Sequence record: MW630116.1
DNA from: Escherichia phage vB_EcoM-ZQ3
Direction: 5' to 3' (one strand)
DNA length: 64,000 bases
Shown: in pieces, positions 6,265 to 35,720 of the stretch
How the letters are laid out: each line of letters opens with the position of its first letter
Position numbering within the stretch: the first letter of the stretch is position 1
Translations under genes and position numbers: made by a program
The notes under the pieces: model-generated
What the model saw: the letters and a program-made list of their open reading frames with translations, nothing else
Told to the model about the DNA's origin: nothing
Database searches by the model: none

Positions 6265-8976
6265 ATGAAAGAATTTTACTTAACGGTTGAACAGATTGGT
6301 GATTCAATTTTTGAACGTTACATCGATTCTAACGGCCGTGAACGTACTCGTGAAGTAGAATATAAACCATCACTGTTTGCTCATTGTCCAGAAAGTCAGG
6401 CTACGAAATATTTCGATATCTACGGTAAGCCGTGTACTCGTAAGTTGTTCGCCAATATGCGTGATGCCTCACAATGGATTAAACGCATGGAAGATATCGG
6501 ACTTGAAGCACTTGGCATGGACGATTTCAAATTGGCGTATTTGTCTGACACTTATAACTATGAAATCAAATACGACCATACAAAAATTCGTGTGGCTAAC
6601 TTCGACATCGAAGTAACATCTCCAGATGGGTTCCCTGAGCCGTCACAAGCAAAACATCCGATTGATGCTATCACCCATTATGACTCAATTGATGACAGGT
6701 TTTATGTATTTGACCTTTTGAATTCTCCATATGGTAATGTAGAAGAATGGTCTATTGAAATCGCTGCTAAGCTTCAAGAACAAGGCGGTGATGAAGTTCC
6801 ATCCGAAATTATCGACAAAATCATTTATATGCCGTTCGATAACGAAAAAGAATTGTTGATGGAATATCTCAACTTCTGGCAACAGAAAACTCCTGTCATT
6901 TTGACTGGATGGAACGTTGAGTCATTTGATATTCCATATGTGTATAACCGAATCAAGAATATTTTTGGCGAATCTACTGCGAAACGTTTATCACCACATC
7001 GCAAAACTCGTGTTAAAGTTATCGAAAACATGTATGGTTCTCGTGAAATCATTACATTGTTCGGTATCTCTGTTCTTGATTACATTGATCTTTACAAAAA
7101 ATTCTCTTTTACCAATCAACCGTCGTATTCTCTGGATTACATTTCAGAATTTGAATTGAACGTTGGTAAACTGAAATATGACGGCCCTATTTCTAAGCTT
7201 CGTGAAAGCAATCACCAACGATATATTTCTTATAACATTATCGACGTATATCGTGTATTGCAAATTGATGCTAAGCGTCAGTTCATCAACTTGAGTTTGG
7301 ACATGGGTTATTATGCTAAAATTCAGATTCAATCTGTGTTTAGCCCAATTAAAACATGGGATGCTATTATTTTTAATAGCCTTAAAGAGCAGAACAAGGT
7401 GATTCCACAAGGTCGTTCTCACCCGGTTCAACCTTATCCAGGCGCTTTTGTTAAGGAACCTATTCCAAATCGATACAAATATGTAATGAGTTTCGACCTT
7501 ACATCCCTGTATCCAAGTATTATTCGCCAAGTGAATATTAGCCCAGAAACAATAGCAGGAACGTTTAAAGTAGCTCCATTGCATGATTATATTAACGCTG
7601 TTGCTGAACGTCCTTCTGATGTGTACAGTTGTTCTCCTAACGGCATGATGTATTATAAAGACCGTGATGGTGTAGTTCCAACTGAAATCACTAAGGTCTT
7701 TAATCAACGTAAAGAACATAAAGGTTACATGCTTGCAGCTCAACGTAATGGTGAAATAATTAAAGAGGCATTGCATAATCCTAATCTTTCTGTTGACGAA
7801 CCATTAGATGTTGATTATCGTTTCGACTTCAGTGATGAGATTAAAGAAAAGATTAAAAAGTTGTCTGCTAAATCTCTTAATGAAATGTTGTTTAGAGCTC
7901 AACGTACTGAAGTTGCAGGTATGACTGCCCAAATTAACCGTAAATTGCTTATCAACTCACTTTATGGTGCACTTGGCAACGTTTGGTTCCGTTATTATGA
8001 TTTGCGTAATGCTACTGCAATCACAACATTTGGTCAAATGGCTTTACAGTGGATTGAACGTAAAGTTAATGAATATCTGAATGAAGTTTGTGGCACAGAA
8101 GGTGAAGCTTTCGTTCTTTATGGTGATACAGACTCTATTTACGTATCTGCTGATAAAATTATCGATAAGGTTGGTGAATCTAAATTCCGTGATACCAACC
8201 ATTGGGTAGACTTCTTAGATAAGTTTGCACGTGAACGTATGGAACCAGCTATTGATAGAGGTTTCCGTGAAATGTGTGAATACATGAACAATAAACAACA
8301 CTTAATGTTCATGGACCGAGAAGCTATCGCTGGGCCTCCACTCGGTTCTAAAGGTATTGGTGGATTCTGGACTGGTAAGAAACGTTATGCATTAAACGTG
8401 TGGGATATGGAAGGTACTCGTTACGCTGAGCCTAAACTCAAAATCATGGGTCTAGAGACTCAGAAATCTTCGACTCCTAAAGCAGTACAGAAAGCTCTTA
8501 AAGAATGTATTCGTCGTATGCTTCAAGAAGGTGAAGAATCATTACAAGAATATTTTAAAGAGTTTGAAAAAGAATTCCGTCAATTGAATTATATTAGCAT
8601 CGCGTCGGTATCTTCTGCGAATAACATTGCTAAATATGATGTAGGTGGATTCCCTGGTCCCAAATGCCCGTTCCATATTCGTGGAATTCTGACGTATAAC
8701 CGTGCTATCAAAGGTAATATCGATGCACCGCAAGTTGTAGAAGGTGAAAAAGTATATGTTCTGCCTTTACGTGAAGGAAACCCATTCGGTGATAAATGTA
8801 TCGCATGGCCTTCTGGTACTGAAATCACAGATTTAATTAAAGACGATGTACTTCACTGGATGGACTACACTGTTCTCCTTGAGAAGACATTTATTAAACC
8901 ACTTGAAGGATTCACATCAGCAGCGAAACTCGATTATGAGAAGAAAGCATCTCTGTTCGATATGTTCGATTTTTGA
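6265..8976 (+). CDS. 43: DNA polymerase gp43 (family B, with 3-prime to 5-prime exonuclease)
   Basis: 903 aa; exo motifs FDIE/YNIIDVY, pol motifs SLYPS, KILLNSLYG-like, YGDTDS; sequence matches my recollection of RB69 gp43. Confidence 0.97.
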   Translation: MKEFYLTVEQIGDSIFERYIDSNGRERTREVEYKPSLFAHCPESQATKYFDIYGKPCTRKLFANMRDASQWIKRMEDIGLEALGMDDFKLAYLSDTYNYEIKYDHTKIRVANFDIEVTSPDGFPEPSQAKHPIDAITHYDSIDDRFYVFDLLNSPYGNVEEWSIEIAAKLQEQGGDEVPSEIIDKIIYMPFDNEKELLMEYLNFWQQKTPVILTGWNVESFDIPYVYNRIKNIFGESTAKRLSPHRKTRVKVIENMYGSREIITLFGISVLDYIDLYKKFSFTNQPSYSLDYISEFELNVGKLKYDGPISKLRESNHQRYISYNIIDVYRVLQIDAKRQFINLSLDMGYYAKIQIQSVFSPIKTWDAIIFNSLKEQNKVIPQGRSHPVQPYPGAFVKEPIPNRYKYVMSFDLTSLYPSIIRQVNISPETIAGTFKVAPLHDYINAVAERPSDVYSCSPNGMMYYKDRDGVVPTEITKVFNQRKEHKGYMLAAQRNGEIIKEALHNPNLSVDEPLDVDYRFDFSDEIKEKIKKLSAKSLNEMLFRAQRTEVAGMTAQINRKLLINSLYGALGNVWFRYYDLRNATAITTFGQMALQWIERKVNEYLNEVCGTEGEAFVLYGDTDSIYVSADKIIDKVGESKFRDTNHWVDFLDKFARERMEPAIDRGFREMCEYMNNKQHLMFMDREAIAGPPLGSKGIGGFWTGKKRYALNVWDMEGTRYAEPKLKIMGLETQKSSTPKAVQKALKECIRRMLQEGEESLQEYFKEFEKEFRQLNYISIASVSSANNIAKYDVGGFPGPKCPFHIRGILTYNRAIKGNIDAPQVVEGEKVYVLPLREGNPFGDKCIAWPSGTEITDLIKDDVLHWMDYTVLLEKTFIKPLEGFTSAAKLDYEKKASLFDMFDF

Positions 8977-9016: not shown

Positions 9017-9652
9017 ATGAAAACTACTCCTATTACTATCGCTATTGACGCAATCATAAAACAAGCTTCTTCTTTGGCCGCTATGGCCAAAGTAATTAGT
9101 CAAAACCCTGCTCGTTATAATGCTATTCTAGAAACTCTTCGACGCCCAGGACTTAGTAATTATGAAAGCCGAGTAATTATTACAGGTGTTGGTAAGAATG
9201 CTAATATTGCAACTAAAGCTTCTGAGACATTTGCTTCACTCGGTATCCCGAGTATGTACTTGAACACTGGGCATTATTCTCACGGTGATGCAGGATTCAT
9301 TGCGCCTAATGATGTGTTGATTCATATTAGTCGTTCTGGTAAAACTGAAGAAATGATAGGCGTGGCTAAGCATCTTAAAATGATTCGTCCGAACGTCAAA
9401 CAGATTCTGTTGCATTGTAACCCGGACATTCCACAAGAATACGAAGCTCTTTTTGATTATACGTTCTGTACAGGCATCGCAGTAGAGGTTGATGAGAATT
9501 CTCTGGCTCCGACCATGTCCACTACATTGTTGTTAGCGCTTATCGATACGTTTGCTATCAACCTTTCGTCTGAACGTGGATTTACCTCTAATGACTTCCT
9601 TAAGTTCCACCCTGGCGGTGCACTAGGTGCCATGTTACGAGGCGAACAATGA
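9017..9652 (+). CDS. SIS-domain sugar-phosphate isomerase, KdsD/GutQ-like D-arabinose-5-phosphate isomerase (no CBS domains)
   Basis: VGKNANIATKASETFASLGIPS...HGD...ISRSGKT and LAPTMSTT...FHPGGALG closely parallel the KdsD SIS core, including conserved Lys and His. Confidence 0.8.
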   Translation: MKTTPITIAIDAIIKQASSLAAMAKVISQNPARYNAILETLRRPGLSNYESRVIITGVGKNANIATKASETFASLGIPSMYLNTGHYSHGDAGFIAPNDVLIHISRSGKTEEMIGVAKHLKMIRPNVKQILLHCNPDIPQEYEALFDYTFCTGIAVEVDENSLAPTMSTTLLLALIDTFAINLSSERGFTSNDFLKFHPGGALGAMLRGEQ

Positions 9653-9792
9653 AAGCAATAACAATAGGACTTTTACTATTGATGCTTGTCATGACTATCT
9701 ACTGGAGCTTAACGGCTCCAGTAATGATTCCGACTCTTATAATCGGATGGATTATGATTGGACTACAAGCAAAGTATGAATGCTTTAACTAG
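9649..9792 (+). CDS. possible 47-aa small membrane protein
   Basis: ATGA overlap with upstream stop; hydrophobic sequence; below the track size cutoff. Confidence 0.35.
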   Translation: MKAITIGLLLLMLVMTIYWSLTAPVMIPTLIIGWIMIGLQAKYECFN

Positions 9793-9833
9793 AATAGTGT
9801 ACAATACTCCTACTTACCAATGAGGACCACAAC

Positions 9834-11522
9834 ATGAAAAAAGCTGTTATTCTTGGTGCTGGACTGGCAACTCGTTTGTATCCAATAACGCATCATATTC
9901 CTAAGGTGCTTGTTAACTATAAACAAGACACTATTCTGAGCAATTTGTATACAATTTATTCTGACCTTGGCGCAGACGAAATTATTGTAGTAGTTCATTC
10001 AAAATTTGCTGAAACTGTTCGAGCTTATTGTGAGCAAGAAGGGTTCAATGTGACTATTCGTACAGTTGATGAAGCGTATGGTTCTGCTTATGCTCTTGCT
10101 AAATTACACAAAGATTTAAACGGCCATAATGTAATTGTTAACTGGTGTGATATTATTCCTGATTTTGGTTCGTGGTCTTGGAATGTTAACGCAATCTATG
10201 TTAAGGGTGACGAATGTCGATATAATTTCGACGGTGAAAATATCACTAATGTAGGTTCAACAGGTGGTAATGTTGTAGGAATTTATCAGTTCAAAGACTG
10301 GGAATTCTATATGGGTTCTACTGATGAGGAAATTCATGAATACTGCAAAGGACGTGATTTCGTAGAATTCCTTTACGGCAGCGCATTCAATAAATCAGAG
10401 CTTATGAATATCATCGACCTTGGTGATATGCCTAAACTTGAAAAAGCTCATGAAGTTCGTGAACTTAATCGTAGTTTTAATGCAGTTGAAATTGGCGAAG
10501 AAACGGTAACAAAGATTGCTTTAACAGAACAGGGCGTTGCACTTCAAAAAGATGAAGTCAATTGGTATAAGAAAGTTAAATCAGATTCAGTTCCACGGAT
10601 TGTAAGTTATCATCCTGGCGGCCACTTTATTATGGAACGTATTAAAGGTAAGCCGGCATTTGAATATATTAAATCCAAATCAAGTCTTGCTCGTCCACAA
10701 ATTGTTGATGCAATTTTAGATGCACTGAAATTCAGCACAGACACTTATTTTGTAAGTCCTGAAACTGTTCGTCGTGATTTCACTAAAGAGTTCTATACGA
10801 AAGTTATTGATCGTTGTGAAAGTATTCAACCATTGATTGATTCATTTGGTAAAATCACACATGTGAACTACACTAAGATTGGGCGTCTGAAGCCAATGCT
10901 GAAACAAGCTTTAGAACACCTTATTCGTTATCATAACCGTTCTCAGGGACAGTACTCTGTTATTCATGGTGACCCGAACTTCAGTAATACTATGATTACT
11001 GATAATGGTGAAGTCAAGTTTATCGACCCTCGTGGATATTTTGGTGAAACCAAGATTTATGGGCCAAAATTGTATGATGAAGCTAAAGTGCTTTATGCTG
11101 TTTCAGGTTATGATGAATTCAACGCTAATCCGACTTGGGGACAGTTTACTATTGATGAAACAACTTGTAATGTGACTATTAACATCAATCCGTTAGTTTA
11201 CAAATATGGAAAGATGAGTTCGTTTAACGAGTATCATCATTTGGCAGTGGCAATTATCTGGATTGCATTGGGTGGTTATTTCAAGAATAATCCACTTAAA
11301 GCGGTAGCCGCATATTATAAAGGTATGGAACTTCTGACTAAGCAATTACGTAACATGGGCCGTGTACTTCAGGACGGCTCTATTAGTTATGACGTAGCAG
11401 AACCTGTAACGGCTACTCTGATTACAAAAAATCCTGGTAAATGGGTACTAACTGATAAAGAAACTGGTGTTTCTTATCGTCCAATCGGTGGCGATATCAC
11501 TCATCAATGGGAACGAATCTAA
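9834..11522 (+). CDS. bifunctional sugar kinase / sugar-1-phosphate nucleotidyltransferase
   Basis: N-terminus AVILGAGLATRLYPIT (RmlA/GlmU-type NTase motif); C-terminal HGDPNFSNTMIT and KFIDPRG (APH/choline-kinase-like Brenner motif). Confidence 0.8.
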   Translation: MKKAVILGAGLATRLYPITHHIPKVLVNYKQDTILSNLYTIYSDLGADEIIVVVHSKFAETVRAYCEQEGFNVTIRTVDEAYGSAYALAKLHKDLNGHNVIVNWCDIIPDFGSWSWNVNAIYVKGDECRYNFDGENITNVGSTGGNVVGIYQFKDWEFYMGSTDEEIHEYCKGRDFVEFLYGSAFNKSELMNIIDLGDMPKLEKAHEVRELNRSFNAVEIGEETVTKIALTEQGVALQKDEVNWYKKVKSDSVPRIVSYHPGGHFIMERIKGKPAFEYIKSKSSLARPQIVDAILDALKFSTDTYFVSPETVRRDFTKEFYTKVIDRCESIQPLIDSFGKITHVNYTKIGRLKPMLKQALEHLIRYHNRSQGQYSVIHGDPNFSNTMITDNGEVKFIDPRGYFGETKIYGPKLYDEAKVLYAVSGYDEFNANPTWGQFTIDETTCNVTININPLVYKYGKMSSFNEYHHLAVAIIWIALGGYFKNNPLKAVAAYYKGMELLTKQLRNMGRVLQDGSISYDVAEPVTATLITKNPGKWVLTDKETGVSYRPIGGDITHQWERI

Positions 11523-11908
11523 TGCACCGTGTAGAAAACATGCTTAATCTTTGTTTTGATGTCGATGATTGTATAACAGAGTGGAATAACAATCGTGATT
11601 ACGTGAACTTCAAACCAGACGTCGAAATGGTGTCTGCCATTAATGCCCTGTATGATGCAGGGCATACCATAACGCTTTACACTGCTCGCGGTATGAAGTC
11701 AGTCGGTCCTGGTCGTATAGCAATTGACATTCTCCCAAGTCTGATTCAGAACTTGGCAAACATTGGATTGAAGTACCATAATTTGCTAACACATAAACCA
11801 GTATATGATTGGATTATCGACGATAAAGCTATGCGTCCTGACGAATTCAAAGCTCTTATGAATAAAGGCGAATTCGAAACATTTAAATCATATAAACCGA
11901 ATCTATAA
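11522..11908 (+). CDS. small HAD-superfamily phosphatase
   Basis: TAATG overlap; candidate HAD motifs FDVDD (I), LYTARG (II), K in THKPVYD (III), IIDDK (IV). Confidence 0.65.
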   Translation: MHRVENMLNLCFDVDDCITEWNNNRDYVNFKPDVEMVSAINALYDAGHTITLYTARGMKSVGPGRIAIDILPSLIQNLANIGLKYHNLLTHKPVYDWIIDDKAMRPDEFKALMNKGEFETFKSYKPNL

Positions 11909-11964: not shown

Positions 11965-13125
11965 ATGAATACCTTTAAAATCGGAACGAATTTTGATTTA
12001 GCTCTTCTTGATAAAATCGTAGAGCTCAATAAAACTTATCCTAATAGCTTGATAAATGAAGTATACGGCTCTACAAGAGAAATGGCTTTTGTAGCAGCCA
12101 GACCTGATTTTAGGCTTCCTGACGTTGACAAAAAGATGTTAGAAGATTATGTTAAACGTTGTAACGAATTAGGTATTTGCTTTAACTATACACTCAACAC
12201 GATAAATCCTGGTTCAAAAAGAGAACTAGTTGAGTGGAAGAAGAAAGCTATTCAGGATTATGTTCAGTATCTTTGGTCAATAGGCGTATGGCGTATTACT
12301 ATCGCTAACCCTGTTGTTATGGAAATTGTTCGTGAAGTCAATAAAGACATTGAGATTGAAGTTTCAACAATTCTACATGTTGATGCTGTAACTCAAATCA
12401 AATACTTGCATGACCAGTATAATATCAAAAAGGTCTGCTGTGGAATTCATAAGAACCGTTCAGTTTCTTTCCTGAAGCGTGCAGCAGAGTTTTGCAATAA
12501 GAACAATATAATATTTGAAGTTCTCGTAAATGAATTCTGTTCTAATGCCGGTAAAGGGTATACAACACATTGTAGCTATCGTGACTCTTGCTATATTTTC
12601 CATAGCACAGATGTTACAGTAGATGATGCTAAATCCTTAAATGGATATCCAATGCAACACTGCATTAAAGCTCGTGATACAGACCCATTTAACTGGTTGA
12701 GAACTCGTTTTGTTCGTCCTCAAGATTTGAAACTTTATAATGATATTGGTATCACTCAATTCAAAGTTTCAGGACGTACAGGTAGCACAGACTACATTTT
12801 GAAAGTTCTTGAAGCTTATGCTTCTGAAAAATTTGAAGGTAATTTGTTGGAATTGTGGAAGCCTTTAGAGACCATTTTCACTCTTGAAAATGAGACCGAG
12901 TTTTCACATACGGTAAATATTGAAACCTCTTTGTTAGATGGCTTTTTAGAAAAAAGGTGGTTCAAACATCCAGATTTCGATTGTGCTAATGAAATCTGCG
13001 GGACGACGTGTACATATTGTGAAAGATATTATAAACGTCAGTTATCTAAAAATGGGTTATCAGAAAACTCTATATCTATTATTGATATAACTAACTCTGA
13101 CGACGCTTTGAGGTACCCAGAATGA
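11965..13125 (+). CDS. Cys-rich enzyme of uncertain family (possibly peptidase-U32-like Fe-S TIM-barrel protein)
   Basis: 386 aa from ATG 11965; cysteine clusters EFCSNAGKGYTTHCSYRDSC and C-terminal CANEICGTTCTYC; QFKVSGR resembles the U32 KIEGR-type motif; assignment tentative. Confidence 0.75.
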   Translation: MNTFKIGTNFDLALLDKIVELNKTYPNSLINEVYGSTREMAFVAARPDFRLPDVDKKMLEDYVKRCNELGICFNYTLNTINPGSKRELVEWKKKAIQDYVQYLWSIGVWRITIANPVVMEIVREVNKDIEIEVSTILHVDAVTQIKYLHDQYNIKKVCCGIHKNRSVSFLKRAAEFCNKNNIIFEVLVNEFCSNAGKGYTTHCSYRDSCYIFHSTDVTVDDAKSLNGYPMQHCIKARDTDPFNWLRTRFVRPQDLKLYNDIGITQFKVSGRTGSTDYILKVLEAYASEKFEGNLLELWKPLETIFTLENETEFSHTVNIETSLLDGFLEKRWFKHPDFDCANEICGTTCTYCERYYKRQLSKNGLSENSISIIDITNSDDALRYPE

Positions 13126-13283
13126 TTTCTAGAAAAACTTTTAACCACCAACTTAATGAAGAGATTTTGACTACGAAAATTAACAGCAACGAACAAATTC
13201 TTAAAAAGGCCCTGATGGGCCTGTTTGAAACTAAAGCGGCTAAAGTGATTAAAGAAACCTGTTCAACTAGAATACTATGCTGA
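13122..13283 (+). CDS. possible 53-aa small protein
   Basis: ATGA overlap with upstream stop; no homology recognised. Confidence 0.3.
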   Translation: MISRKTFNHQLNEEILTTKINSNEQILKKALMGLFETKAAKVIKETCSTRILC

Positions 13284-13359
13284 TGCATTTCTTCATAGTG
13301 TTCTTGGAAGTATCGATGCTGAAGCTTTACGTTATATCAACATTGTCAAGAAATTCAAA

Positions 13360-13385
13360 TAAGCTTTACGAATTGAGTATATAAT
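13360..13385 (+). promoter_or_regulatory. putative MotA-dependent middle promoter
   Basis: taaGCTTTA box, 11-nt gap, TATAAT 13380-13385; aagctttacg also at 13322. Confidence 0.45.
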
Positions 13386-13404: not shown

Positions 13405-14121
13405 ATGGGAAAACATAACACAATGAAATATATCAAAGCCGCAGATTTTCAAACCGCATTTAAAGCAGTCAATCGTGAAATTTTAGAAAACCCGGAATTC
13501 GTAACTGATTCTCGTATTGGACGTTGTAATGAAATTGGGTCTATGACAGTAGTTGTTGATACCCCTTCATCATTCAAAATGACCGACCCACGTATTAATC
13601 GCATCTCTTATGAATATGCTGAAGATTTCTGGAAGTTTATGATTTCTGGTGGTACCAACGCAGAAGAAGCGTTTAAGGCATATCCTAATGTCGCTAAATT
13701 TATTTCTAAACCAAAATCAGATGTTTTGCCTGCAAACTTCAACACTTTCTATGGTCCACGAATTGCGGCCCAGTTACCAGCTCTTCTAAAAGAACTTAAA
13801 GAGAAGCCTAACTCTCGAAGAGTTGTGTTCCAAATTCTAGAAAGTTCTGATCAGGCTTTGCTTGATTCAGACGAAACGCTTGAATATCCATGTACTGACT
13901 CAGTGACTTATTATATTCGTGATGGTAAGCTTTATACCCACTGTCATATGCGTTCTCAGAACTGTGCTGTTGTTATGCAGTTGGATTTTTATCTCCAAGG
14001 AAAATTACTTCATTATATCGCTAACGAATGCGGTGTAGAAGTTGGTGATTATACTCATACCATGGTAAGTGCCCATGTGTTTGAACGTGATTTTGATTAT
14101 GTTAAAGGATTCCTTGACTAA
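13405..14121 (+). CDS. thymidylate-synthase-fold pyrimidine-modifying enzyme, divergent dCMP hydroxymethylase (gene 42)-like
   Basis: 238 aa; NSRRVVFQI, YPCTDSVTYYIRDGKL and SAHVFERDF parallel the T4 gp42/TS motifs SRRGIMIY, FMCTNTVQYLIRDKKI, SLHVYSRHF. Confidence 0.8.
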   Translation: MGKHNTMKYIKAADFQTAFKAVNREILENPEFVTDSRIGRCNEIGSMTVVVDTPSSFKMTDPRINRISYEYAEDFWKFMISGGTNAEEAFKAYPNVAKFISKPKSDVLPANFNTFYGPRIAAQLPALLKELKEKPNSRRVVFQILESSDQALLDSDETLEYPCTDSVTYYIRDGKLYTHCHMRSQNCAVVMQLDFYLQGKLLHYIANECGVEVGDYTHTMVSAHVFERDFDYVKGFLD

Positions 14122-15020
14122 TGGCTATTTTCCGCGTACCTATCTTGAGTATGCGGTCTTATGAAACTGGACAGTATGCTATCCTTAAGGATGGCAACTT
14201 CCAACTTCATTTGCACCGTGCTAATCCGGGTGATGTGATTACATATCCACGTAATGCATCTGATATTAAAGAATGCGAACGTCTTTTTCCAGAATTTAAG
14301 TTTGTTCCATTATGGTATAAAGATAACGCGTATAACACTCGTAAATATTTCTGGTCTGAAAATGAATTTGTGGTTGATTCATTAATTGCTTATTATGATT
14401 GTGATTTTCTAATCACAGATATCACTGGATATGACGGTGCTTTTGATGTGGAATTCAATTTCAATATCACTGCAGACCCTAATAAACCACGTTTTTATAT
14501 TGACGAATTCTTAAAAACCGATATGTTGTCGGTTAATCGTTCACTTCAAACTACTGTGTTGAATAAACGTCAAAAGGAAGTGCTGGTTAACGCTGGTGCC
14601 GATGGTAATAAGATTATCGTAACCCAGAAAGTTATACGTCCTTCCATCATGCAGCGTCTTGTAGGTGATTTGGCTCCTATTCATCTAGATGGTATTTTTC
14701 ATCCATTTCGAATTAGTGACCCGTGCTATCGTTTTGAACAAGTGGTTGAATGTGCAATTCAATTAGGCCAACCGCTTTATATAACCGATCCAAATAATAG
14801 CTTCGACAGAAATAAGTATCCTGAAGAAGCGCTGATTCGAATTTTTAAACCAACTAAAACCGAGTACTATCAAATTCTTAAAGGACGTCCAAAGATTCAA
14901 TATTTCGAAAATCCTGAAGAAGTATTCCATCCAGGTCTTGGTGAGTTCATCTACTTTAATGCTTTAATTTCTTCGCCGTATAATATACCTAAATACGAAG
15001 ATGTCGTAATCGAGGAATAA
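14121..15020 (+). CDS. hypothetical protein (299 aa), function unknown
   Basis: TAATG overlap with the TS-like gene; no recognised motifs. Confidence 0.75.
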   Translation: MAIFRVPILSMRSYETGQYAILKDGNFQLHLHRANPGDVITYPRNASDIKECERLFPEFKFVPLWYKDNAYNTRKYFWSENEFVVDSLIAYYDCDFLITDITGYDGAFDVEFNFNITADPNKPRFYIDEFLKTDMLSVNRSLQTTVLNKRQKEVLVNAGADGNKIIVTQKVIRPSIMQRLVGDLAPIHLDGIFHPFRISDPCYRFEQVVECAIQLGQPLYITDPNNSFDRNKYPEEALIRIFKPTKTEYYQILKGRPKIQYFENPEEVFHPGLGEFIYFNALISSPYNIPKYEDVVIEE

Positions 15021-15021
15021 A

Positions 15022-15570
15022 ATGGCTAAAATTATTTTAGTAGATGGCCCGGATAATGCCGGTAAAACAACTTTCATTAATGACATAATGGAAATTAGTG
15101 AAAGATATGTAAAGATTGATTTCCCTAAACGAACAGTTGACGGACGTTTCGATGTTAAGTCTCGAAATGAAGTTGGCTGTTTCGAAACGATGTTGAATTA
15201 TTTAGACCCTACTAAGATTTATCTGTTAGATCGTGGATATATTAGTAACTGGGTTTACGGACGTATTCGACAAGATGCGGACTCGGTTCTTGACGTTTAT
15301 GAACAGGATTATGTTCGTCTTTGCCAAAACCATGATGTGTTCACAATTATTTTAACACGTAACGAAATGACTGAAAGTTTTGAAGACGACCTTATTACTT
15401 TGTCTTCATTCGGTTTTAATACAGTAATTTCATATTTTGAAGAGTTTGCAATCCATAACGAAATCCAAACGTATCAATTACTTAATCATGATGGTGCTAA
15501 CAAAGTTATAGGATTTAATGCAAGCGAACGTAATAATTTGATTACAGAAATTATCAAATGGGCTCGTTAA
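15022..15570 (+). CDS. P-loop kinase (nucleotide/nucleoside kinase-like)
   Basis: Walker A GPDNAGKTT near N-terminus; LDRGYISNWVYG resembles dNK/TMK-type motif. Confidence 0.8.
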   Translation: MAKIILVDGPDNAGKTTFINDIMEISERYVKIDFPKRTVDGRFDVKSRNEVGCFETMLNYLDPTKIYLLDRGYISNWVYGRIRQDADSVLDVYEQDYVRLCQNHDVFTIILTRNEMTESFEDDLITLSSFGFNTVISYFEEFAIHNEIQTYQLLNHDGANKVIGFNASERNNLITEIIKWAR

Positions 15571-15590
15571 GAGCCTGTTTAAAGTTTTAA
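15561..15590 (+). terminator. possible weak terminator hairpin spanning the kinase stop codon
   Basis: ggctc-gttaa-gagcc followed by T-rich tract. Confidence 0.35.
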
Positions 15591-15616
15591 ATGCTGTATA
15601 ACCCTTAGTATATAAT
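15589..15616 (+). promoter_or_regulatory. possible middle promoter upstream of uvsX
   Basis: aaaTGCTgtA box-like, TATAAT at 15611-15616. Confidence 0.35.
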
Positions 15617-34619: not shown

Positions 34620-35720
34620 ATGAAAGTTATGTTTATCCCATCTCGTGCAGTCCCATTTAATCCTGACCGTGTACAAGGTGGTCTTGAAGCAGTACATTTA
34701 AATGTGTTGAAATATCTTGTGTCCATCGGTGCTGATATTGATTATATCGGTTTTGATAATGACACATTTGGTGATTGGAAGGTTAATCATCATCCTGTTG
34801 GTCATCTGACTAAATTCAGTCTAGGTATGAGTTATACTATGGCTCGTAAGATTGTTGAACTAGCCGGCATCCATGAATACGATTTTGTTGTTACTATGGA
34901 AACGACTAAACTAACCGTTCAGGCAATTAAAGACGCAGGTCTCTCTAAAGTTCATAAGAATTTTATGGCAACACCATTTGAACCGGTATCTCGTGGCATT
35001 GTTCAAATTTGGGACCAGACTATTCAAATTCATAAGAATGGTGGTAAGAGTTATGCTCCTACTAAAGCCTTCCGTGAATTTGAACGCAAATATTGTTATA
35101 TGACTTCAGGTCTGACTGACAAAATTGATTACGATTATTGGCGAGCAAATCCGTTGTTTGAAGCCGAAGATTATCCGGTTATTTGTTTGAATGAGAAACC
35201 TGAAGTTCTTCCGGCGACTGATCTGATTATTAGTGCACAACGTTATGACACTAAAATGCGTCGTACTGATGTTGCTCTTGAAGCGATTAAAGCACTAGGC
35301 GAAAATGGTGTAGGATACTGTCCTAGTAAATGGGCACCACCGGCTAAGTATCCTGTTATTATTGATGCTCCACACAGTGAAATCATGGAACGTCTTAAAA
35401 CAGCTAAAGCACTTATCAATACGTGTCCTGACACGGGTACGGTAGAGAATAGTTCTATTGAAGCCATCTCTAAAGGTGTCCCTGTGATTCAGTTAGTTTT
35501 TAAGGATTATCCGCACGCGACATTCGAATATGACCCAGATACTGTGCGTGTAGAAATTGATTCCTCTACTCCTAAGAAAGAAGTAGTTGCGCTTTACACA
35601 AAAGCGGTATTAGAATTCACTGACACATACGAAGCTCGAGTTAAACGTGCTGAAGCAGTATGGAAGAAGTATAACCGAGATGCGGTTGTTGCGATGTGGG
35701 ATAAAATCTTCACAGCGTAA
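34620..35720 (+). CDS. putative GT-B-fold glycosyltransferase (candidate DNA sugar transferase)
   Basis: N-terminal GGLEAVHLNVLKYL; C-terminal GTVENSSIEAISKGVPVI resembles the GT4-type EX7E/donor-binding segment. Confidence 0.7.
   Translation: MKVMFIPSRAVPFNPDRVQGGLEAVHLNVLKYLVSIGADIDYIGFDNDTFGDWKVNHHPVGHLTKFSLGMSYTMARKIVELAGIHEYDFVVTMETTKLTVQAIKDAGLSKVHKNFMATPFEPVSRGIVQIWDQTIQIHKNGGKSYAPTKAFREFERKYCYMTSGLTDKIDYDYWRANPLFEAEDYPVICLNEKPEVLPATDLIISAQRYDTKMRRTDVALEAIKALGENGVGYCPSKWAPPAKYPVIIDAPHSEIMERLKTAKALINTCPDTGTVENSSIEAISKGVPVIQLVFKDYPHATFEYDPDTVRVEIDSSTPKKEVVALYTKAVLEFTDTYEARVKRAEAVWKKYNRDAVVAMWDKIFTA

Follow-up and report, generated by a model that had tools for sequence, protein, structure and literature searches.

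The cytosine-modification locus of Escherichia phage vB_EcoM-ZQ3 encodes a predicted arabinosyltransferase and a Tmk-lineage kinase next to a 5-hydroxy-dCMP synthase homologue

The DNA of phage RB69 holds mono- and di-arabinosylated 5-hydroxycytosine (5hoC), in which the sugar is ether-bonded directly to C5, and contains neither glucosyl- nor arabinosyl-hydroxymethylcytosine (Lee et al., NAR 2026, PMC13326640). In the pathway described there, RB69 gp48, a thymidylate synthase (TS) homologue with the diagnostic change D169N (E. coli ThyA numbering), produces 5-hydroxy-dCMP (5hodCMP) with flavin and O2, and gp159, the RB69 kinase of the T4 gp1 type, converts 5hodCMP to the diphosphate 5hodCDP in vitro (PMC13326640). 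UDP-arabinofuranose (UDP-Araf) is supplied by upstream genes encoding an arabinose-5-phosphate isomerase, an AfhE-type kinase/pyrophosphorylase, and an AfhF-type phosphatase, and the second arabinose is proposed to be added by RB69 gp3 (PMC13326640). The same study designates RB69 gp46:47 and DLP3 gp79 as "arabinosyltransferase 1" and RB69 gp45 and DLP3 gp78 as "nucleotide kinase", and describes genes 214-216 of Rhizobium phage RL38J1 as a three-gene row of TS homologue, transferase, and kinase (PMC13326640). Phage HY126, the subject of He et al. (Nat Chem Biol 2026), the study behind PDB entries 9iqc and 9iqz, carries the same two genes. Here we analyzed a stretch of 64,000 nucleotides from Escherichia phage vB_EcoM-ZQ3 (MW630116.1), referred to as the window, with a focus on two genes directly downstream of a TS-like gene, which encode homologues of these two proteins, 299 and 182 amino acids (aa) in length. 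Because the transferase, the kinase, and the TS-like protein are nearly identical to those of phages HY126 and RB69, in which the pathway has been worked out (PMC13326640), we consider it probable that this region encodes the central part of the Mosigvirus pathway replacing cytosine with arabinosylated 5hoC, with the 299-aa protein acting as the first arabinosyltransferase and the 182-aa protein as a 5hodCMP kinase.

The window belongs to a Mosigvirus (T4-like), and the 2.3 kb around both genes is 98-98.6% identical at the nucleotide (nt) level to many RB69-like phages. The three-gene stretch shares 97.8% nt identity with p045-p048 of RB69 (NC_004928), where the genes stand in the same order; the kinase is identical to RB69p045 at 180 of 182 residues and the TS-like protein to RB69p048 at 236 of 238. 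In the comparison with HY126 (PP658200), identity extends to 296 of 299 residues of the 299-aa protein, all 182 residues of the kinase, 233 of 238 residues of the TS-like protein, and 559 of 562 residues of the bifunctional protein encoded upstream. The gene set does not differ in substance from the RB69 reference, but the transferase gene, intact in the window, is split there by a 1-nt indel. This indel is an extra T in the RB69 record at the site corresponding to window position 14664, outside any homopolymer run, and divides the gene into RB69p047 and RB69p046 (locus L059, 4598-5498). The intact copy thus supports the published view that the split in RB69 is a sequencing error.

Both open reading frames (ORFs) were recognized, with the same coordinates and sizes, in an initial annotation made from the letters of the window. 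They are real conserved genes and not chance ORFs, because homologues of the 299-aa protein, in which 28 residues are invariant, form at least 137 clusters and are present in 348 phage records, and because the kinase family counts 27 close clusters and 291 representatives. The genes have already been described in the literature of 2025-2026, and their identification in the window is a re-discovery. The close coupling to the TS-like gene also holds as annotated. The TS-like stop codon and the 299-aa start codon overlap as TAATG, with the final A of the TS-like TAA serving as the A of the ATG, and the 299-aa stop codon is separated by a 1-nt gap from the kinase ATG, 6 nt upstream of which lies a GAGGA ribosome-binding site. 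The gene order in the window is 43, sugar genes, TS-like, 299 aa, 182 aa, uvsX, 40, and 41, compared with 43, imm, 42, beta-gt, segA, uvsX, 40, and 41 in T4. The 299-aa gene therefore does lie in the T4 beta-gt slot, between the gene 42 homologue and uvsX.

A role of the TS-like neighbour as a dCMP hydroxymethylase is contradicted by its sequence. The protein carries the D169N and N177D signature MRSQNCAVVMQLD, which reads MRSQN...D as opposed to MRSND in T4 gp42, and it matches the crystallized TS homologue of PDB entries 9iqc, 9ir2, and 9iqu (phmmer, E 8e-161). Because this N169-type signature is combined with the match to 9iqc, a 5hodCMP synthase, and with near-identity to the HY126 protein and RB69 gp48, the TS-like protein is, as judged from its sequence, a flavin-dependent dCMP 5-hydroxylase and not a dCMP hydroxymethylase.

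The 299-aa protein matches PHROG 3891, a family of "unknown function" (E 3e-156), and shares 45.6% aa identity with its counterpart in the DLP3 locus. The family is restricted to phages, whose hosts include Escherichia, Acinetobacter, Klebsiella, Serratia, and Yersinia. The initial annotation had found no recognizable motif, and searches of Pfam and NCBIfam likewise gave no match at E<=0.1. Sequence searches of the PDB returned no match for either the single sequence or a 55-sequence family profile. Using hhalign, no homology was detected between the protein and T4 beta-glucosyltransferase (beta-GT; probability 0.25%), and no match was obtained between the family and the phage's own second glycosyltransferase (366 aa). 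The only informative approach for its function was structure prediction, which yielded two Rossmann-like domains in a GT-B arrangement. The best structural matches over 240-270 residues, as detected by Foldseek, are retaining enzymes of the GT4 family. These include sucrose-phosphate synthase (6kih), BshA (6n1x), PimA (2gej), and MshA (3c4q), which use UDP- or GDP-sugar donors. The structural matches named in PMC13326640 (6kih and thymidylate kinases) agree with those found for the two window proteins. These results point to a compact GT-B glycosyltransferase, closest in fold to retaining GT4 enzymes and predicted to be the first arabinosyltransferase on 5hoC; retaining GT4-like chemistry would fit an alpha-linked first arabinose.

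The protein also departs from its structural relatives. Compared with the GT4 enzymes, it is only 7-12% identical and approximately 60-100 residues shorter, has no match to a Pfam GT4 domain, and belongs to a family with invariant H270-P271-G272 followed by E/D275 in place of the EX7E motif. An E267-x7-E275 arrangement does occur in the window protein, but it was rejected as a family motif since 46 of the 55 members have K or T at position 267. Compared with T4 beta-GT (GT63), to which it has no sequence homology, and T4 alpha-glucosyltransferase (alpha-GT; GT72), it is smaller (299 versus 351 and 400 aa). The predicted acceptor is the ring hydroxyl of 5hoC, probably in DNA, instead of a hydroxymethyl group, and the predicted sugar is arabinofuranose instead of glucose. 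The isoelectric point was considered as a hint of DNA binding and dropped; it is 5.3 for the 299-aa protein, yet T4 alpha-GT is also acidic (6.1).

The 182-aa protein contains the Walker A motif noted in the initial annotation (GPDNAGKT, residues 9-16), and its predicted structure adopts the Tmk fold. Its P-loop includes the Tmk-type Asp (D11), and G9-P-D11-N-A-G14-K15-T16 and D70-R71 align to E. coli Tmk. In the hhalign comparison with this enzyme (probability 88.5%), the P-loop, the FPK(R)/TREP segment, and the DR...S...Y motif (Y79) are aligned. The P-loop nucleoside monophosphate (NMP)-kinase fold, the GxDxxGKT loop, the DR motif, and the conserved Tyr are thus shared with thymidylate kinases (PF02223). 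A search of 1.84 billion representatives with the kinase family profile retrieved 291 relatives. Across the remote ones, K15 and R71 are invariant, and G9, D11, G14, D70, and Y79 are at least 90% conserved. PF02223 (Thymidylate_kin) was matched by 45 of 61 sampled relatives, and the kinase of locus L054 scores 34.7 bits against a cut-off of 27. The window kinase itself reaches 15.6 bits with TIGR00041 (cut-off 83) and has no PDB match by sequence, and it resembles the T4 gp1-type deoxynucleoside monophosphate (dNMP) kinases (Pfam DNMK, PF21448) in neither sequence nor structure, although it would, like T4 gp1, channel modified dCMP into the dNTP pool. From its motifs and modeled fold, we conclude that the 182-aa protein is probably an active member of the Tmk lineage, a dNMP kinase whose base specificity has changed, and we infer 5hodCMP as its substrate.

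Some remote relatives of the kinase (P0179, P0180, P0185, P0187, and P0195; loci L060 6001-7074, L061 1446-2390, and L062 127-1092) are fused to a C-terminal MBD4-like HhH-GPD glycosylase domain. This domain matches PDB 4ew4 (E 5e-9) with conservation of the hairpin and the catalytic Asp, and the fusion genes adjoin N169-type TS and transferase-like genes. A search of the window for an MBD4-like domain found none. The fusions, a new finding here, possibly repair 5-hydroxyuracil:G mispairs arising from deaminated 5hoC. In L060, a flavin reductase gene (Pfam FMN_red, 7068-7613) directly follows the kinase fusion and precedes arabinose genes, in keeping with the need of the TS-like hydroxylase for flavin.

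To place these genes in a wider context, 52 IMG/VR loci were collected via the transferase family, and translations of 54 loci, including the GenBank loci L001-L002, were scanned with profiles. The TS profile and the kinase profile each matched 49 of the 54 loci, and the N169-type TS ("MRS[QN]N...D"), transferase, and kinase occur together in nearly all loci with enough flanking sequence. The commonest order is TS, transferase, and kinase, with genes that overlap or nearly touch. An overlap or a gap of at most 10 nt between the TS and transferase genes recurs in distant loci, while the kinase lies a few genes further upstream in some T4-like genera. The association also holds in loci L060-L064, and the three-gene set is kept at 37-40% identity in metagenomic contigs without nearby arabinose genes. 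Conservation of the hydroxylase, transferase, and kinase genes as a trio therefore extends to distant phages, a finding that is new here. The trio looks to be mobile, passing from phage to phage as one module that brings its own kinase. The presence of a second kinase in T4-like phages is explained by this set, since it carries one.

In the proposed pathway, the TS-like enzyme would hydroxylate dCMP to 5hodCMP with flavin and O2, as shown for RB69 gp48 (PMC13326640), and the upstream genes would make UDP-Araf, as shown elsewhere. The 182-aa kinase and/or the gp1-type kinase would convert 5hodCMP to the diphosphate, after which host NDP kinase and the phage polymerase would place 5hoC in DNA. 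The 299-aa enzyme may transfer the base-proximal alpha-arabinofuranose from UDP-Araf to the 5-OH of 5hoC, most probably on DNA after replication, and the 366-aa transferase would then attach the second arabinose. With arabinosyl-5hoC, phage DNA is protected against restriction enzymes, some CRISPR systems, and DNA glycosylases, which makes the enzymes responsible for it relevant to phage therapy and to the enzymatic synthesis of glycosylated DNA. The initial annotation had counted the kinase step among the missing ones, which is not clearly so given the activity of RB69 gp159.

Several observations weigh against these assignments. For the transferase, the lowest Foldseek E-values belong to UDP-GlcNAc 2-epimerases, which share its fold, and family members do not consistently share the EX7E motif. 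Neither PMC13326640 nor PMC12838424 shows transfer activity for this family, and on its own DLP3 gp79 showed no activity toward 5hoC-DNA with either UDP-Araf or UDP-arabinopyranose (UDP-Arap) (PMC13326640). TH1_063, a 300-aa homologue from the Shewanella phage Thanatos, is reported as a UDP-xylose pyrophosphorylase, which formed UDP-xylose from UTP and xylose-1-phosphate in vitro and left plain DNA, dCMP, and dCTP unmodified (PMC12838424). For the kinase, the window sequence falls below every Pfam threshold, including that of PF02223, and an 8-residue hhalign gap lies opposite the thymine-contact segment "LMFYAARV" of E. coli Tmk. The substrate proposed for it is, moreover, already phosphorylated by the gp1-type kinase in RB69 (PMC13326640).

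The inactivity of DLP3 gp79 on 5hoC-DNA would fit the main alternative, in which the 299-aa enzyme arabinosylates free 5hodCMP, the kinase is specialized for the bulky arabinosyl-5hodCMP, which the gp1-type kinase would not accept, and the polymerase incorporates a glycosylated dCTP analogue. The experiments in PMC13326640 do not separate arabinosylation of the mononucleotide from arabinosylation after replication. In addition, a dedicated second kinase is kept beside the transferase though RB69 gp159 handles 5hodCMP (PMC13326640), the transferase and kinase genes adjoin or overlap each other in almost every locus, and the N-terminal (acceptor) domain of the 299-aa protein contains many invariant polar residues, which would suit a small specific acceptor. 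If true, this would be the first glycosylation before replication in phage DNA hypermodification. However, the known phage DNA glycosylations by T4 alpha-GT and beta-GT and the later arabinose additions of DLP3 all act on DNA (PMC13326640). To obtain 5-hydroxydeoxycytidine (5hodC) in DNA, it suffices to express the TS homologue and the gp1-type kinase, so its triphosphate, 5hodCTP, is a polymerase substrate, whereas a glycosylated dCTP is not known to be accepted by the polymerase. The gene linkage is also explained by non-T4 phages without a gp1-type kinase, which need the Tmk-like kinase for 5hodCMP. We regard glycosylation before replication as unlikely. Transfer of the first arabinose to 5hoC in DNA remains the preferred reading.

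A second alternative concerns the 182-aa protein, which is labeled "thymidylate kinase" in GenBank and PHROG and is closest in fold to Tmk. It could be an ordinary dTMP kinase or a DNA-directed 5-OH kinase similar to the 5-hydroxymethyluracil DNA kinases of thymidine-hypermodifying phages, and the fusion of some relatives to the DNA-binding MBD4-like glycosylase domain provides a link to DNA-acting enzymes. Its genes, however, are found strictly with those for the transferase and N169-type hydroxylases and not with thymidylate synthesis, the family is small (291 representatives in 1.8 billion), and the helix segment contacting thymine in Tmk is not alignable. In T4-type phages, gp1 is already available for dTMP. 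The P-loop Asp and the DR and Tyr motifs would indicate, by comparison with Tmk structures, a dNMP rather than DNA as the acceptor, and phosphorylation of the 5-OH would block glycosylation. Either role appears distinctly doubtful next to that of a 5hodCMP kinase.

The results for TH1_063, together with the Foldseek ranking of the UDP-GlcNAc 2-epimerases, would also accommodate a 299-aa protein that acts on a UDP-pentose through its GT-B-type fold, as a pyrophosphorylase or an enzyme resembling UDP-sugar epimerases. We judge this highly improbable and retain the arabinosyltransferase assignment. The least credible reading, that of the initial annotation, in which an analogue of T4 beta-GT glucosylates hydroxymethylcytosine (hmC)-DNA alongside an hm-dCMP kinase, agrees with the beta-gt slot, the GT-B fold, and the NMP-kinase fold but is effectively refuted already by the N169-type 5hodCMP synthase next door, the arabinosyl-5hoC in RB69 DNA (PMC13326640), the UDP-arabinose synthesis encoded in the cluster, and the lack of homology between the 299-aa protein and beta-GT. 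The enzyme classes of that annotation stand and are supported by the structure prediction it had called for, while its chemistry of hmC and glucose gives way to 5hoC and arabinose, which corrects a natural misreading based on T4.

The features of the region and the second transferase gene are listed in Table 1.

Table 1. Genes and promoter-like motifs associated with the modification pathway in the window
Feature	Position	Strand	Description
SIS-domain arabinose-5-phosphate isomerase	9017-9652	+	RB69 gp55 homologue; Pfam SIS; predicted first step of UDP-arabinose supply (PMC13326640)
MotA-box and -10 motif	9779-9805	+	Just upstream of the AfhE-like gene
Bifunctional sugar kinase/UDP-arabinose pyrophosphorylase	9834-11522	+	HY126 AfhE, RB69 gp52:53; Pfam NTP_transferase and APH
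HAD-type phosphatase	11522-11908	+	HY126 AfhF (128/128 identical), RB69 gp51; role per PMC13326640
Peptidase-U32-family protein	11965-13125	+	RB69 gp50; Pfam Peptidase_U32, 42.4 bits
Small ORF	13122-13283	+	Between the U32 and TS-like genes; RB69p049 counterpart; 40-79 aa in relatives; no family match
MotA-box and -10 motif	13359-13385	+	ATAAGCTTTAC-N-TATAAT; 20 nt before the start codon of the TS-like gene
TS-like gene	13405-14121	+	238 aa; TAA at 14119-14121; predicted dCMP 5-hydroxylase (RB69 gp48 homologue); Pfam Thymidylat_synt, E 2e-15
299-aa gene	14121-15020	+	ATG start; TAA at 15018-15020; predicted GT-B arabinosyltransferase
MotA-box and -10 motif	14957-14984	+	TAATGCTTTAA-N-TATAAT; in the 3'-terminal part of the 299-aa gene; 38 nt before the kinase start codon
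182-aa kinase gene	15022-15570	+	ATG start; predicted Tmk-clade dNMP kinase; putative substrate 5-hydroxy-dCMP
MotA-box and -10 motif	15589-15616	+	Just upstream of uvsX
Second glycosyltransferase	34620-35720	+	366 aa; RB69 gp3/ORF003c homologue; PDB 9iqz/9ir0

The genes predicted to supply UDP-arabinose lie upstream of the TS-like gene. The counterparts of the SIS-domain protein in HY126 and phage NRG-P0074 are annotated as D-arabinose-5-phosphate isomerase, and the activity of HY126 AfhE is cited at second hand in PMC13326640. NRG-P0074, a close relative, has a homing endonuclease gene (locus L001, 3408-4169) between its AfhE-like and HAD genes, an insertion that neither the window nor HY126 shares. 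The 366-aa transferase is encoded apart from this cluster. It has no Pfam match and gives a full-length phmmer match to the "phage HY126 glycosyltransferase" of PDB 9iqz/9ir0 (E 3e-249).

The U32 homologue RB69 gp50 is entered only as a "sugar or heterocycle reductase" in PMC13326640. The phage U32 proteins share ten invariant Cys residues, including a C-terminal CX4CX3CX2C. Three loci that are not T4-like (L049 6466-9051, L050 4268-6862, and L054 6119-8973) contain, in order, genes for an NTP pyrophosphohydrolase, a Tmk-like kinase, a transferase-like protein, and a U32 homologue, the last being 47-50% identical to the window U32 protein. No TS homologue was found in the flanks of these three loci, where the U32 homologue takes its place. 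Within the locus set, U32 is absent from the Acinetobacter and Pseudomonas phage loci, the JS10/Bp7-like E. coli phages (L011-L015 and L020), and the environmental loci L029-L048. The U32 family includes RlhA, TrhP, and UbiU/V, which are oxygen-independent hydroxylases; RlhA is the 23S rRNA 5-hydroxycytidine synthase and is annotated as such in the database. The phage U32 family has no PDB match by sequence, and its hhalign comparison with E. coli RlhA is not significant (probability 3.9%). Pfam membership and gene context, the sole grounds of the proposal, suggest that the U32 protein is a candidate O2-independent cytosine C5 hydroxylase, which might provide an anaerobic route to 5hoC. This proposal is new here.

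A scan of the window for generic sigma-70 promoters and terminators performed no better than shuffled sequences. The MotA-type pattern, for which shuffles gave an expectation of 1.8 sites per strand, occurs at 13 sites on the plus strand and 5 on the minus strand. By analogy with T4, these motifs are taken to be middle-promoter-like elements. Since one of them is located inside the 299-aa gene (Table 1), the kinase may also have its own middle promoter and be transcribed separately.

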